This document shows, one piece after another, positions 2,343-35,379 of a DNA stretch of 64,000 nt (within the stretch, counting starts at the first letter, position 1; every line of letters starts with the position of its first letter). The stretch lies in contig CAYMRP010000004.1 of the NCBI GenBank assembly GCA_964392925.1, positions 71,184-135,183 on the forward strand. Direction: 5' to 3'. Below the pieces are notes generated by a model, which was not told the DNA's origin, did no database searches, and saw only the letters and a program-made list of their open reading frames with translations. A program made the position numbers and the translations under genes. The DNA comes from an uncultured Gammaproteobacteria bacterium (lineage in GTDB: Bacteria; Patescibacteriota; Microgenomatia; Daviesbacterales; UBA10151).

Positions 2343-3113
2343 ATGGACAAGACTGAGACTACTTCTTTCATTACCACACCAACAGCAATCTTAATCGGAT
2401 CGATCTTAATCTCTATTTCCTTATTAATCTCTGGCGGTGCTGTTCAAATAAAAGGTTTTAATTCTGGCGCGGCTGGTGTACCTACAGCCCCAGGAGCTCC
2501 TGCAGCTCCAGGCGCACCCACAGCTGCAGCCCCAGCTGAGCCAACATCTGCCACAGTCTCTATAGACGATGATCCCATCTTAGGAAATGCGGACGCTCCT
2601 GTCACCATAGTTGAATTCTCCGACTATGAATGCCCATTCTGCAAAAGACATTTTGAACAGACTTATGCTCAACTAAAAACTAACTACATAGAAACAGGCA
2701 AGGTAAAGTTAGTTTTCCGTGATCTCCCGCTTTCTTTCCATGATCCTCTAGCTACAAAAGAAGCAATCGCTGCCAATTGCGCTAGAGAGCAGGGCAATGA
2801 TCAGACTTATTTCAAGATGCATGAGGCACTTTTTCAAACCACAACATCAAATGGTAGTGGCATGACCATGGATCAGCTTTACGGTTTAGCCGGGAAAGTC
2901 GGTATTGATCAAACTGCTTTCAAAACCTGTATCGATGCCGATAAATATAAAGATGAAGTAGCCAAAGACTTAGCAGATGCCGGTGCAGCCGGAGCAACTG
3001 GAACTCCTAGTTTTGTGATTGGTAAATCAGGCAAAGAAGTCTCAGGTAAGTTAATAGTTGGAGCTCAGCCGTACGCAGCATTCCAAGCCGAAATCGATGC
3101 TTTGTTAAAGTAA
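2343..3113 (+). CDS. Membrane-anchored DsbA-family thiol:disulfide oxidoreductase
   Basis: Has an N-terminal TM helix, an Ala/Pro linker and a thioredoxin-fold CPFC active site (FSDYECPFCKRH). The C-terminal GTPSFVIG motif is typical of the DsbA/thioredoxin_4 family. Confidence 0.8.
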   Translation: MDKTETTSFITTPTAILIGSILISISLLISGGAVQIKGFNSGAAGVPTAPGAPAAPGAPTAAAPAEPTSATVSIDDDPILGNADAPVTIVEFSDYECPFCKRHFEQTYAQLKTNYIETGKVKLVFRDLPLSFHDPLATKEAIAANCAREQGNDQTYFKMHEALFQTTTSNGSGMTMDQLYGLAGKVGIDQTAFKTCIDADKYKDEVAKDLADAGAAGATGTPSFVIGKSGKEVSGKLIVGAQPYAAFQAEIDALLK

Positions 3114-3175
3114 CAATTTAACCATTTAACAATTCAGCAATTTAACCATTTAACAATTCAGCAATTTAACAATTA
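3114..3175. repeat. 24-bp tandem repeat, about 2.6 copies (CAATTTAACCATTTAACAATTCAG)
   Basis: Units at 3114-3137 and 3138-3161 are identical, with a partial third unit from 3162. The repeat lies between dsbA-like and the kinase gene. Confidence 0.85.
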
Positions 3176-32235: not shown

Positions 32236-32340
32236 ATACAACATCTAGTGTATTGACAGTTACCTAAGACAATATGTTAATCTTATTTTTACATTAATAC
32301 ATGTTGAGTCTTCAAGACCAATGAGGTACAATATGTTGTA
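32236..32340 (+). promoter_or_regulatory. Candidate NrdR-box region upstream of, and overlapping, the nrdR start
   Basis: ATACAACATCTAGTGTAT lies at 32236-32253. ACAATATGTT occurs twice (32269-32278 and 32328-32337). The last copy forms the near-palindrome TACAATATGTTGTA (32327-32340) that ends on the A of the ATG. The motifs resemble the acaCwAtATaTwGtgt consensus only in part. Confidence 0.35.
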
Positions 32341-32792
32341 TGTATTGCCCATTTTGCAGATCCTTACAGAGCAGTGTTATCGATAAAAGATCGGTAAAAG
32401 GCACTGGTGAAATTAGACGTAGAAGAGAGTGCCTGAAATGTAAAAGACGCTACACTACCTACGAACGGGCAAGCGCAGTCGAGTTATTAGTTATCAAGCG
32501 GGACGGTAGAAGACAGCCTTTTGATATTGAAAAACTCAGAATGGGACTTGAAAGATGTCTGGAAAAGCGTCCGGCTTATCAGAATCTAGATGTCATCCTG
32601 GCTAAACTTGAGCGTAAAATCCGCTCTAAGGAAGTAGCTGAGATTGACAGCAAGGTTATCGGTCGGGAAGTACTCGGAGAACTTAAAAAGCTGGACCAAA
32701 TAGCTTATTTAAGATTTGTTTCCGTTTACAGACAATTTAAGCAGGCCAGCGATTTTACAAAAGAACTCGCAAACCTGAAGCTAGAAGAGTAG
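32340..32792 (+). CDS. nrdR: NrdR transcriptional repressor (zinc ribbon plus ATP-cone)
   Basis: Contains MYCPFCRS...CLKCKRRYTTYE followed by an ATP-cone (VIKRDGRRQPF). Confidence 0.92.
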   Translation: MYCPFCRSLQSSVIDKRSVKGTGEIRRRRECLKCKRRYTTYERASAVELLVIKRDGRRQPFDIEKLRMGLERCLEKRPAYQNLDVILAKLERKIRSKEVAEIDSKVIGREVLGELKKLDQIAYLRFVSVYRQFKQASDFTKELANLKLEE

Positions 32793-32817
32793 AGTTCGTT
32801 GAAAGCTTCGCTTCCAA

Positions 32818-32852
32818 AAGAACTTGCCAACTTAAAATTAGAAGAATACTAA
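32818..32852 (+). repeat. In-frame, synonymously diverged duplicate of the nrdR C-terminal decapeptide (KELANLKLEE) downstream of the nrdR TAG
   Basis: Codons 32817-32846 encode KELANLKLEE, the same peptide as 32760-32789. They differ at 7 nt, all synonymous. The copy is in the nrdR frame and ends Y-TAA at 32847-32852. Confidence 0.8.
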
Positions 32853-32859
32853 AAATAAA

Positions 32860-35379
32860 ATGAAAAAACAAAATCAAAACAAAGCAGTCGCTCTACAAAT
32901 TCAAATCCCAGCAGATAACGCCAAAAAAGCCGAAATCAAAGATGTAAACAGAGCCTTTGATGAAGGAATACTTCCAAAAATCCGGACCAAAACTGAATTA
33001 GATGGTATCCGTCAAAAAGTCTTTATGGATCGCTACTCGCTTAAAGACGTTAACGGTGAACCAACCGAATTTATTCCAGAAGAAATGTGGCAAAGAGTCG
33101 CCGCTGGAATTGCTCAAATGGAAAAAACCCATCCTTTAAGAAAACATTGGGCAAAAGAGTTTTATTCTGCCATGGAAGGATTTAAATTCGTTCCAGCCGG
33201 CCGTATTCTCTCCGGTGCCGGCACGGGCTACGAAGTCACGTTCTTCAATTGCTATGTTATCCCTTCTCCCAAAGATTCAAGACAGGGCATCATGGAAAAC
33301 ATCACTCACACCGTAGAGATTCAGGCAAGAGGTGGAGGAGTTGGAATCAATCTTTCATCTTTAAGACCTCACGGTGCTCGTGTTAAAAAAGTTAACGGCA
33401 CATCCTCAGGACCAGTCTCTTGGGCAAAATTATATTCAGCCGCCAATCACGACGTTATTCAGCAGGGTGGTTCAAGACGCGGCGCTCTAATGCTCATGCT
33501 TCACGACTGGCATCCAGATGTTATTGAATTCATTCACGCCAAAGAAGATGGGGTTTCAATTCCCGGAGCTAATCTCTCAGTCTGTGTTTCTGATAAATTT
33601 ATGGAAGCCGTTCAAAAAGATGAAGAATGGGTAACTGTTTTTCCCGATGTTTCTGACCCTGAATATGATGAAAAATGGGATGGTGTTTTAGAAAATTGGA
33701 CAGAAATGGGTAAGCCAGTTATTGAATACACCAGAATGCCAGCTCGGGAAATTTGGGATCAAATCTGCACTTCAGCCTGGAAGTCCGCTGAGCCAGGTCT
33801 TCACTTCCTTGAGCGAAGCAATAAATGGGGAAATACTTGGTATTTTGAAAAATTACTCTCCACCAATCCTTGCGGTGAACAGCCTTTAGGTGAATGGGCA
33901 GTTTGTAACTTAGGCGCTATGAATCTCTCGGCTTTTGTTAATGATGAAGGGGTGTTCGATTATGACGATCTCGATGCTAAAGTCAGAGTCGCTATGAGAT
34001 TTATGGATAACGTTGTTGATGCCAACTATTATTTCTGGGAAGAGAACGAGAAAAAAGCTAAAGATATTAGAAGAACCGGCATCGGCACAATGGGCTTAGG
34101 TGATGCCTTAATCAAGATGAAACTTGCCTACGGTTCCGAAGATGCTCAACCAGTCATCGAAAAAATATATAAAACAATTAGAGATGCCTCTTATGACACA
34201 TCTTCTGACTTAGCCGCTGAAAAAGGCTCCTTCCCGATGTTTGACTCGGAAAAATATTTACAGGGCCATTTTATTAAACAGCTGCCTCAGCCAATCAGAA
34301 GCAAAATCCAAAATCAGGGCATTAGAAACGCTGTTATTTTAACTCAGGCTCCAACCGGAACTACCTCACTTCTAGCCGGTGTTTCCTCAGGAATCGAACC
34401 AGTTTTTGATTTCAAATTCACCAGAAAAGATCGAATAGGCGAGCACGTTATTTATCATCCGCTATACGAAGCCTGGATGAAGCAAAATCCTGGAGCTGAT
34501 CGCCCTCACTATTTCGTCGGCGCAAATGACATGAGTCCTATGGATCACGTTAAAGTCCAGGCTTTAATCCAGGGATACACTGATTCCTCGATTTCCAAAA
34601 CAGCCAACGCTCCTTTTGAATTCACAGTCGACCAGGTTAAAGAGCTTTATATGGAAGCATATAAATTAGGCTGCAAAGGGGTAACTTTCTTCAGAGACGG
34701 CTCAAGAACTGCCGTCTTAACTCATGGTGATGATAAAAAAACTGAGGTAGCCAAAGTAGAAATGAATTCTGCGACCACACAAGATACTGTCGTTTCTCGC
34801 CCAATGATCTTAAGAGGACGCACCTATAAAATGCAGACTCCAGTTGGAGAAGGTTTTATTACTATCAATCGTGATGAGCAAGATAATCCTTTTGAAGTCT
34901 TCATTACTGTTGGTAAAGGCGGAATGCACACAATGGCTGATGCTGAAGCAATGGGCCGTTTAGTTTCTCTATCCTTAAGACTCGCCAGAAGTGCTTCAAA
35001 CGCTGATCCTAAAACAGTTGCCCAAAAAATCTCGGCCCAACTCCGGGGAATTGGCGGCGCTTCCCACGTTGGATTCGGCAAAGATCGTGTTATGTCCTTA
35101 GCTGACGCTATTGCTAAAGCTTTAGCTGAAGATTTAGCAATAACCGCTGAAAATCCATCAGAAAAAATTGAAACTGTCCCTCTTAATTTAACAATGGAAA
35201 CAGAAACCGCTTCCCCAGTCGAAAATACTGGTGCAGATGATGTTATCACTTCTCAAATGCCGTTAATAACGGAATCTACTCAAAAAACCGCCGATCTTTG
35301 TCCGGAATGCGGACAGGCGAGTTTTGTATTCGAAGAGGGGTGCAAAAAATGCTACTCCTGCGGATACTCAATGTGTTAG
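32860..35379 (+). CDS. nrdJ: Class II (adenosylcobalamin-dependent) ribonucleotide reductase with a C-terminal Cys4 zinc finger
   Basis: Contains NPCGEQPL (catalytic Cys), TGTTS, SKT.N and the tail CPECG...CKKCYSCG. It is 839 aa and monomeric-type. Confidence 0.9.
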   Translation: MKKQNQNKAVALQIQIPADNAKKAEIKDVNRAFDEGILPKIRTKTELDGIRQKVFMDRYSLKDVNGEPTEFIPEEMWQRVAAGIAQMEKTHPLRKHWAKEFYSAMEGFKFVPAGRILSGAGTGYEVTFFNCYVIPSPKDSRQGIMENITHTVEIQARGGGVGINLSSLRPHGARVKKVNGTSSGPVSWAKLYSAANHDVIQQGGSRRGALMLMLHDWHPDVIEFIHAKEDGVSIPGANLSVCVSDKFMEAVQKDEEWVTVFPDVSDPEYDEKWDGVLENWTEMGKPVIEYTRMPAREIWDQICTSAWKSAEPGLHFLERSNKWGNTWYFEKLLSTNPCGEQPLGEWAVCNLGAMNLSAFVNDEGVFDYDDLDAKVRVAMRFMDNVVDANYYFWEENEKKAKDIRRTGIGTMGLGDALIKMKLAYGSEDAQPVIEKIYKTIRDASYDTSSDLAAEKGSFPMFDSEKYLQGHFIKQLPQPIRSKIQNQGIRNAVILTQAPTGTTSLLAGVSSGIEPVFDFKFTRKDRIGEHVIYHPLYEAWMKQNPGADRPHYFVGANDMSPMDHVKVQALIQGYTDSSISKTANAPFEFTVDQVKELYMEAYKLGCKGVTFFRDGSRTAVLTHGDDKKTEVAKVEMNSATTQDTVVSRPMILRGRTYKMQTPVGEGFITINRDEQDNPFEVFITVGKGGMHTMADAEAMGRLVSLSLRLARSASNADPKTVAQKISAQLRGIGGASHVGFGKDRVMSLADAIAKALAEDLAITAENPSEKIETVPLNLTMETETASPVENTGADDVITSQMPLITESTQKTADLCPECGQASFVFEEGCKKCYSCGYSMC

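Follow-up and report, generated by a model that had tools for sequence, protein, structure and literature searches.

Among the systems described so far, short tandem duplications that span a stop codon come closest to the locus reported here. As in those duplications, the locus consists of head-to-tail units of approximately 57-60 nt, each with a stop, of which only the first is translated within the gene. Such arrangements can collapse by recombination between the repeats, and a fresh example of the kind was found at locus L089. Two differences are apparent: at our locus the second unit combines an old, decayed junction half with a tail half that looks "fresh", and the arrangement is common to three diverged lineages yet missing from the closest strains. 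This patchy presence, together with the mixed age of the second unit, argues for repeated recombination or conversion and not for one recent slip.

A second comparison is offered by the replacement of gene ends through homology-facilitated or out-of-register recombination, as with integrating elements that bring a substitute 3′ end and displace the original one, in which a new tail with its stop comes to lie upstream and the resident tail keeps its native flank. Both features can be recognized in the lineages discussed below (L082 when compared with L178, and L081). In contrast to integrating elements, there is no mobile element, integrase or att-like structure between the copies, and the insert is about 57 nt long. 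We infer from mosaic breakpoints that gene-end replacement has operated here. Programmed stop codon read-through is resembled in that the reading frame of two of the three lineages continues beyond TAG without a further stop ahead of copy 2; it differs in that neither the frame nor the identity of the stop is conserved, the nearest relatives have no extension and no read-through signal was found at the locus.

The gene concerned encodes the repressor NrdR. As in the nrdRJ operon of Streptomyces, the promoter of which has been described (PMC9110341), a class II ribonucleotide reductase (RNR) is encoded downstream, and palindromes that look by eye like NrdR boxes precede the gene. We analyzed the DNA that follows the nrdR stop in a stretch of 64,000 nucleotides (hereafter the window; G+C content 38.6%), in which the end of nrdR is encoded twice. 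With a probability of roughly 0.7, the second copy would be a non-functional, displaced former or alternative 3′ end of nrdR left behind by duplication or recombination.

Results

The nrdR-nrdJ region

The nrdR gene occupies positions 32340-32792 of the forward strand (ORF list) and encodes a protein of 150 amino acids with a Zn-ribbon and an ATP-cone. Its 3′ end reads ...FTKELANLKLEE followed by a TAG stop (32790-32792), and the C-terminal residues of the product are ...QFKQASDFTKELANLKLEE. An identical protein, P0001, carries precomputed Pfam assignments PF22811 and PF03477. The product matches the solved NrdR proteins of E. coli and S. coelicolor end to end (E=6e-37), residues 1-147 aligning with residues 1-148 of E. 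coli NrdR and DFTKELANLK facing DFGEEIARLE. Both CxxC motifs of the Zn-ribbon are present (MYCPFC...ECLKC), with cysteines aligned to those of E. coli NrdR; the ATP-cone (PF03477) reaches the C-terminus, and the tail KELANLKLEE aligns with the final residues of the solved E. coli protein. The C-terminal region of NrdR is a helix-loop-helix, the second helix of which completes a four-helix bundle on ATP-cone dimerisation (PMC9110341). The protein of the window is a typical NrdR, and the peculiarity of the locus is confined to the DNA 3′ of its stop. Its relatives, where named, belong to Daviesbacteria or Patescibacteria.

Downstream and in the same orientation lies a gene for an nrdJ-type (class II) ribonucleotide reductase (32860-35379, forward strand, 839 amino acids; ORF list), orthologs of which at related loci contain PF00317, PF02867 and PF12637. 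A small in-frame indel at the N-terminus of NrdJ (32860-32880) distinguishes the window from L172 and L173, MKKQNQNKAVALQ versus MKNKNKAVALQ; it lies in an A-rich 13-nt repeat (32851-32879).

The promoter region of nrdR (32236-32341, forward strand) contains a TTGACA hexamer and three palindromes resembling NrdR boxes, at about 32236-32251, 32267-32282 and 32326-32341, all assigned by eye. A search with the NrdR-box consensus gave only one match, with three mismatches, at 32236-32251; no NrdR boxes were found inside the repeat described below. The palindromes read ACAACATCTAGTGT, GACAATATGTTAAT and TACAATATGTTGTA, and the last of them overlaps the nrdR start codon. About 60 nt of this promoter are almost identical in the window, in L172 (2897-3002) and in the distant L082 (~609-713), with nrdR genes only 74% identical.

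Two units across the nrdR stop

As shown in alignment A1, the end of nrdR forms the first of two head-to-tail units. Unit 1 (32733-32792, forward strand) comprises nrdR codons 132-150 and the stop (QFKQASDFT-KELANLKLEE-TAG) and represents the tail now in use; within it, the decapeptide KELANLKLEE is encoded by a 30-mer at 32760-32789 (AAAGAACTCGCAAACCTGAAGCTAGAAGAG, copy 1). It is followed on the same strand by a junction or spacer J (32793-32816), a decayed copy of nrdR codons ~132-139 that holds an in-frame TTG at 32799-32801. Spacer J is three bases shorter than the nrdR stretch from which it was copied; with it, the repeat extends weakly upstream. Copy 2 (32817-32852, forward strand), probably the displaced former 3′ end of nrdR, encodes KELANLKLEE-Y-TAA, its 30-mer being located at 32817-32846 (AAAGAACTTGCCAACTTAAAATTAGAAGAA).

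Translation continued in frame past the TAG gives SSLKASLP-KELANLKLEE-Y-TAA and ends at 32852, 7 nt before the ATG of nrdJ. At a period of 57 nt the TAG after copy 1 lines up with the TAC after copy 2, one base apart. Both 30-mers translate to KELANLKLEE and have seven nucleotide differences, every one synonymous: five at third codon positions and two at first positions of Leu codons, or, by type, C/T three times, G/A three times and A/C once. The two copies, the in-frame continuation and the seven synonymous differences had been pointed out in the sequence-only reading of this DNA and were reproduced when the region was re-read and recomputed. The units are too diverged for Tandem Repeats Finder, which detected no 57-nt repeat in either the window or L082.

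The sole reason to consider a diversity-generating retroelement with template and variable repeats (DGR) was a bAvd-like gene upstream of nrdR in L081; this possibility was rejected, as mismatches between the copies are not adenine-specific. The gene in question (L081, 580-945) has a Pfam hit to 23S_rRNA_IVP and a weak one to bAvd, to which accessory proteins of DGRs belong. An explanation at the RNA level found no footing either: no significant fold (z = -1.5) and no Rfam family were found. Direct repeats cannot pair with each other.

The second copy in related lineages

The DNA after the nrdR stop was compared in 13 close relatives. A second copy is carried by three lineages, represented by four assemblies only: the window together with L176, L082 and L081. 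All three lineages contain two homologous head-to-tail units, each with its own stop (alignment A1), and the bodies of their nrdR genes are only 74-78% identical. L176 is an independent sample of the window's species (nrdR 99% identical) and has the same TAG and TTG before its contig ends. In L082, TAG is followed in frame by KSSLQALLT-KELASLKLE-TAA. In L081 the stop is TAA, and copy 2 lies in the +1 frame behind further stops, reading TTG-QALLT-KELESLIKN-TAG.

The junction agtt[c/a]gTTG[a/c]aagct..ctt[a/c]ca is homologous in the window, L082 and L081 (alignment A1), and therefore a single origin of the element is indicated. The homologs of J in L082 and L081 show 83-92% identity by hand count. 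Between lineages J has accumulated three non-synonymous changes (K/Q, S/L, P/T) and one synonymous change.

These data bear on the possibility that the assembler joined two strain alleles of one nrdR end. Two co-existing alleles would differ only synonymously, and the window does belong to a metagenome-assembled genome. However, the same architecture, with a homologous yet diverged junction (unit three bases shorter, TTG shared), is present in four independent assemblies from different runs, and spacer J is no allele of the upstream sequence. We regard an artefact of this kind as extremely improbable.

The tail KELANLKLEE itself was seen only in the window's species; among the best 120 of 2,581 homologs (see below), relatives have mostly KELESLIKN and, in a few cases, KELASLKL[ED]. 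The Asn and the extra Glu are common to both copies in the window and occur in no other lineage.

Stop codons and the search for a longer NrdR

One proposal made from the sequence alone was that the TAG is a recent TAC to TAG nonsense mutation, or a population variant, which truncates an ancestrally longer NrdR with a tandem tail. The single-base difference between TAG and TAC at equivalent positions of the repeat would fit this proposal. However, a stop directly follows copy 1 in all four element-bearing assemblies, that is, in L081 and L082 as well as in the independent sample of the same species, in which it is the same TAG. The stop of the window is not even orthologous to that of L082, as GAG-TAG aligns with TAG-AAG. 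A long form was also sought among relatives, using the hypothetical read-through product as a query against 5.8 billion proteins. The search returned 2,581 NrdR homologs, and no tandem-tail NrdR was found in the best 120 of these, which were inspected; relatives with at least 71% identity have 148-151 amino acids, save for a few N-terminally truncated proteins (116-139 amino acids). The nonsense mutation is already largely refuted, and hardly any probability remains for it.

Programmed or leaky read-through of the TAG would yield a minor NrdR isoform of 170 amino acids in which the C-terminal helix occurs twice. In the window and L082, both of which use TAG, copy 2 lies in the nrdR frame with no further stop in between. 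Against this, TAG is an ordinary stop in the window: TAA ends 36 of the 57 long ORFs, TAG 12 and TGA 9. In L081 the stop is TAA and copy 2 is out of frame behind more stops, the TAGs of the window and L082 are non-orthologous codons, and the extension is missing from the nearest strains (L163, L177, L178 and L172-L175). No suppressor tRNA is present within the 64-kb window, the sole tRNA there being tRNA-Glu(CTC), and no structured RNA was detectable downstream of the stop by folding or by Rfam search. Read-through, which the sequence-only reading had also put forward, is accordingly judged very improbable. Reassignment of TAG was rejected on the same counts of ORF ends, ORFs being intact under table 11.

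Single-tail relatives and mosaic gene ends

In L172-L175 a single ESLIKN tail is followed by an unrelated spacer, despite 97-98% identity of nrdR and 93% identity of nrdJ to the window. L163, L177 and L178, which are 93-94% identical to L082, likewise have a single tail. The second copy is present in some close strains and missing from others and is dispensable.

The most informative comparison is that of L082 with L178. The single genuine tail of L178 ends ...gcc agc ttg aag cta gaa TAA and is followed by a spacer of ~110 nt that reaches nrdJ. Over the stretch that begins with "ttg aag cta gaa TAA" and includes this whole spacer, the distal part of L082 copy 2 and its flank have one mismatch to the L178 end, with gene bodies only 94% identical. 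The proximal 18 nt of L082 copy 2 equal L082 copy 1, and six sites there differ from L178. Copy 2 of L082 thus matches L178 distally and its own copy 1 proximally and is a mosaic of recombination or conversion. Its right part and flank are the native end of nrdR, and the left part was converted by the upstream unit or came with it. By analogy, copy 2 of the window probably shares the history of L082 copy 2.

The L178 gene body is 99% identical to that of L163, but the final 12 coding bases and the complete spacer after them agree with L082. To judge from these matches, L178 has a clear recombinant breakpoint inside the NrdR tail. The tail types ESLIKN, EALIKT and ASLKLD/E vary inside clusters of 90% protein identity.

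Copy 2 of L081 encodes TKELESLIKN and differs from the genuine tail of L172 by 4 nt, all of them synonymous. A hairpin-like element that follows it also follows the genuine nrdR stop in L002 and L083. This element is a purine-rich/pyrimidine-rich inverted repeat (...ggtagatgatagaaggtagaagatgg...ccatcactatcttccatc...), which lies after nrdR at about 1613-1671 in L081 as well as in L002 and L083 and is absent from the window; the repeat, located between nrdR and nrdJ, could represent either a small insertion or a hairpin element.

In the window, the tight junction between the stop of copy 2 and nrdJ is typical of the more distant single-copy loci L001, L003 and L164, in which the start of nrdJ overlaps or adjoins the nrdR stop. 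A strain with ...KELANLKLEEY-TAA-7 nt-nrdJ as the end of the gene was not found among the relatives examined. Scans of metagenome and genome collections returned mostly distant NrdR loci; the close ones were only L001-L003 and L083, none with the copy. The contig index yielded no entry for the window's own protein.

When 156 nrdR loci were surveyed for a downstream copy of their own tail, only L089 and L153 were recovered outside this clade. The match in L153 was rejected as a chance K/E-rich match inside the next gene. In L089, a distant NrdR locus, a 94-nt tandem unit spans the nrdR stop (1932-2125, 2.1 copies, 100% identity); this duplication is either a very recent event or an assembly artefact.

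The spacer between nrdR and nrdJ has been replaced wholesale between close strains, while the promoter is nearly invariant. From the contrast between a hypervariable junction and a near-invariant promoter it can be argued that the junction holds nothing essential. In these Patescibacteria the junction appears, from the sequences compared, to be a small recombination hotspot at which tails (ESLIKN and ASLKLE types) and spacers are swapped between near-identical strains.

Intergenic DNA also contains short repeats of 8/16 nt in tandem, of the type TAACCATTTAACAATT; four of the five matches in the window lie at 3112-3174, against 0.45 expected by chance. Motifs of this family fill the nrdR-nrdJ spacers of L082 (1272-1310), L178, L172 and L166. 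They may act as terminators or promoter elements, or may belong to a small repeat family.

Synonymous divergence of the two copies

The odds that seven substitutions spare the decapeptide were computed under three models. They are 2e-6 for random substitutions and 1.3e-4 for six transitions and one transversion, and they rise to 4e-3 if the model admits GC to AT transitions alone, which favours this outcome most (6 of 7 synonymous sites hit, 0 of 6 non-synonymous). GC to AT is the direction of six of the seven differences when read from copy 1 to copy 2. The pattern exceeds what chance would give for a duplicate decaying neutrally in situ.

As a positive control we compared the genuine tails of L082 (copy 1) and L163. 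They differ at 9 of 30 nt and have no amino-acid change, the genes being 93% identical. A synonymous-only pattern is therefore the look of two selected nrdR alleles. Few non-synonymous differences are expected between tails with separate histories because every genuine tail is under strong purifying selection, and this selection is strong since the last ATP-cone helix takes part in the four-helix bundle that forms the dimer interface. To explain seven differences in 30 nt with no replacement, translation of copy 2 at its present site is not required.

It had been concluded from the sequence alone that purely synonymous divergence implies that both copies were, or still are, translated. The first half of this claim is supported, copy 2 of L082 corresponding to the genuine gene end of L178; the second half is not needed.

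Comparison with outgroups points to copy 1 as the site of most of the seven changes. The gcA codon of copy 1 is absent even from L176, and copy 1 of the window has Ctg and Cta, against tta/ttg in L163 and in the first copies of L081 and L082. Copy 2 of the window differs from the genuine tail of L081 at 3 of 30 nt. In AAG CTA, copy 1 of the window resembles copy 2 of L082, and in AAA TTA copy 2 of the window resembles copy 1 of L081 and L082; this apparent swap involves only two two-fold degenerate sites, too few to carry an interpretation.

A possible small ORF

The TTG in spacer J opens a candidate ORF of 17 amino acids (32799-32852, forward strand; TTG-KASLPKELANLKLEEY-TAA). The sequence-only reading had raised the possibility that copy 2 is expressed from this TTG as a tiny separate peptide. 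A separate ORF of 15-17 amino acids might be translated, perhaps by ribosomes that re-initiate 6 nt after the nrdR stop; its product could mimic the last NrdR helix, or its translation could simply serve to couple nrdJ to nrdR. The TTG and an intact reading frame are indeed kept in all three lineages, whatever the frame relative to nrdR, and the sole indel (a single base in L081) lies just upstream of the TTG. In the window, copy 2 preserves every tail residue of copy 1, the stop of the ORF lies 7 nt from the nrdJ ATG, and the segment that would be mimicked belongs to the ATP-cone dimer interface.

Most of the remaining observations point the other way. The ORF is derived from coding sequence, for which an open frame of 15-17 codons is unremarkable. 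Its N-terminal half changes non-synonymously, by the three replacements noted above in spacer J, and the ORF is missing from the closest strains. The tail of the L081 peptide, ESLIKN, is unlike the NrdR tail of the same genome, ASLKLE. In L082 the ORF ends about 100 nt before nrdJ, so that coupling is not conserved, and the match of L082 copy 2 to the genuine gene end of L178 also counts against a separate peptide. The duplex of the TTG region with the anti-SD sequence reaches -2.4 kcal/mol; only 8 of 47 window genes have an SD, which equals background, so its absence is uninformative. Taken together, we consider translation of this ORF unlikely.

In a more specific form of the small-peptide proposal, the peptide would be a free last ATP-cone helix, produced by re-initiation, which competes for the four-helix-bundle interface and tunes NrdR oligomerisation and RNR repression. 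It would then constitute a strain-variable, self-encoded anti-repressor co-evolving with the NrdR tail, as the Asn and Glu-Glu in both copies might suggest. This form is quite improbable; the corresponding synthetic peptide would have the sequence MKASLPKELANLKLEEY.

Discussion

The displacement of a former nrdR end, which we favour, could have come about as follows. A tandem duplication across the nrdR stop would have occurred once, creating a unit of about 57 nt that consists of the last ~19 codons, the stop and a few bases. This unit would have been placed immediately upstream of the native nrdR tail and would then have moved between lineages, or been partly overwritten, via homologous recombination or gene conversion. 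Alternatively, the unit may be old, with its distal copy refreshed repeatedly by recombination with single-copy alleles. By either route copy 2 would be an nrdR end that was under selection until recently. Translation would end at the first stop codon, and the native tail would be left behind, with its own stop, in the nrdR-nrdJ spacer. The Asn and extra Glu that both window copies have may be due to a short gene conversion or to selection toward the native sequence of the lineage. As to direction, the distribution could reflect either gain by transfer or an ancient origin with repeated collapse.

Several points weigh against a displaced end. None of the relatives examined has copy 2 of the window as its gene end, and for this genome the key step is drawn by analogy. 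If copy 2 had evolved neutrally since the lineages split, seven synonymous and no non-synonymous differences would be improbable (about 0.004 at best). The shared Asn and Glu require conversion or parallel selection after the split. Finally, the retention of the TTG and its open frame in three lineages, with the only indel just upstream, counts here as well as in favour of the small ORF.

If a peptide mimicking the NrdR tail were nevertheless made, a new mode of control would be added for a widespread repressor, but this reading is not favoured by our data. Most likely the second nrdR tail is an ordinary evolutionary scar of a known kind, a strain-variable event of about 57 bases. The locus carries a caution for similar cases: where the end of a gene and an untranslated copy close to it differ only synonymously, this alone proves neither read-through nor a hidden peptide. 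Recombination can produce the same pattern by stranding an allele on which selection acted until recently.
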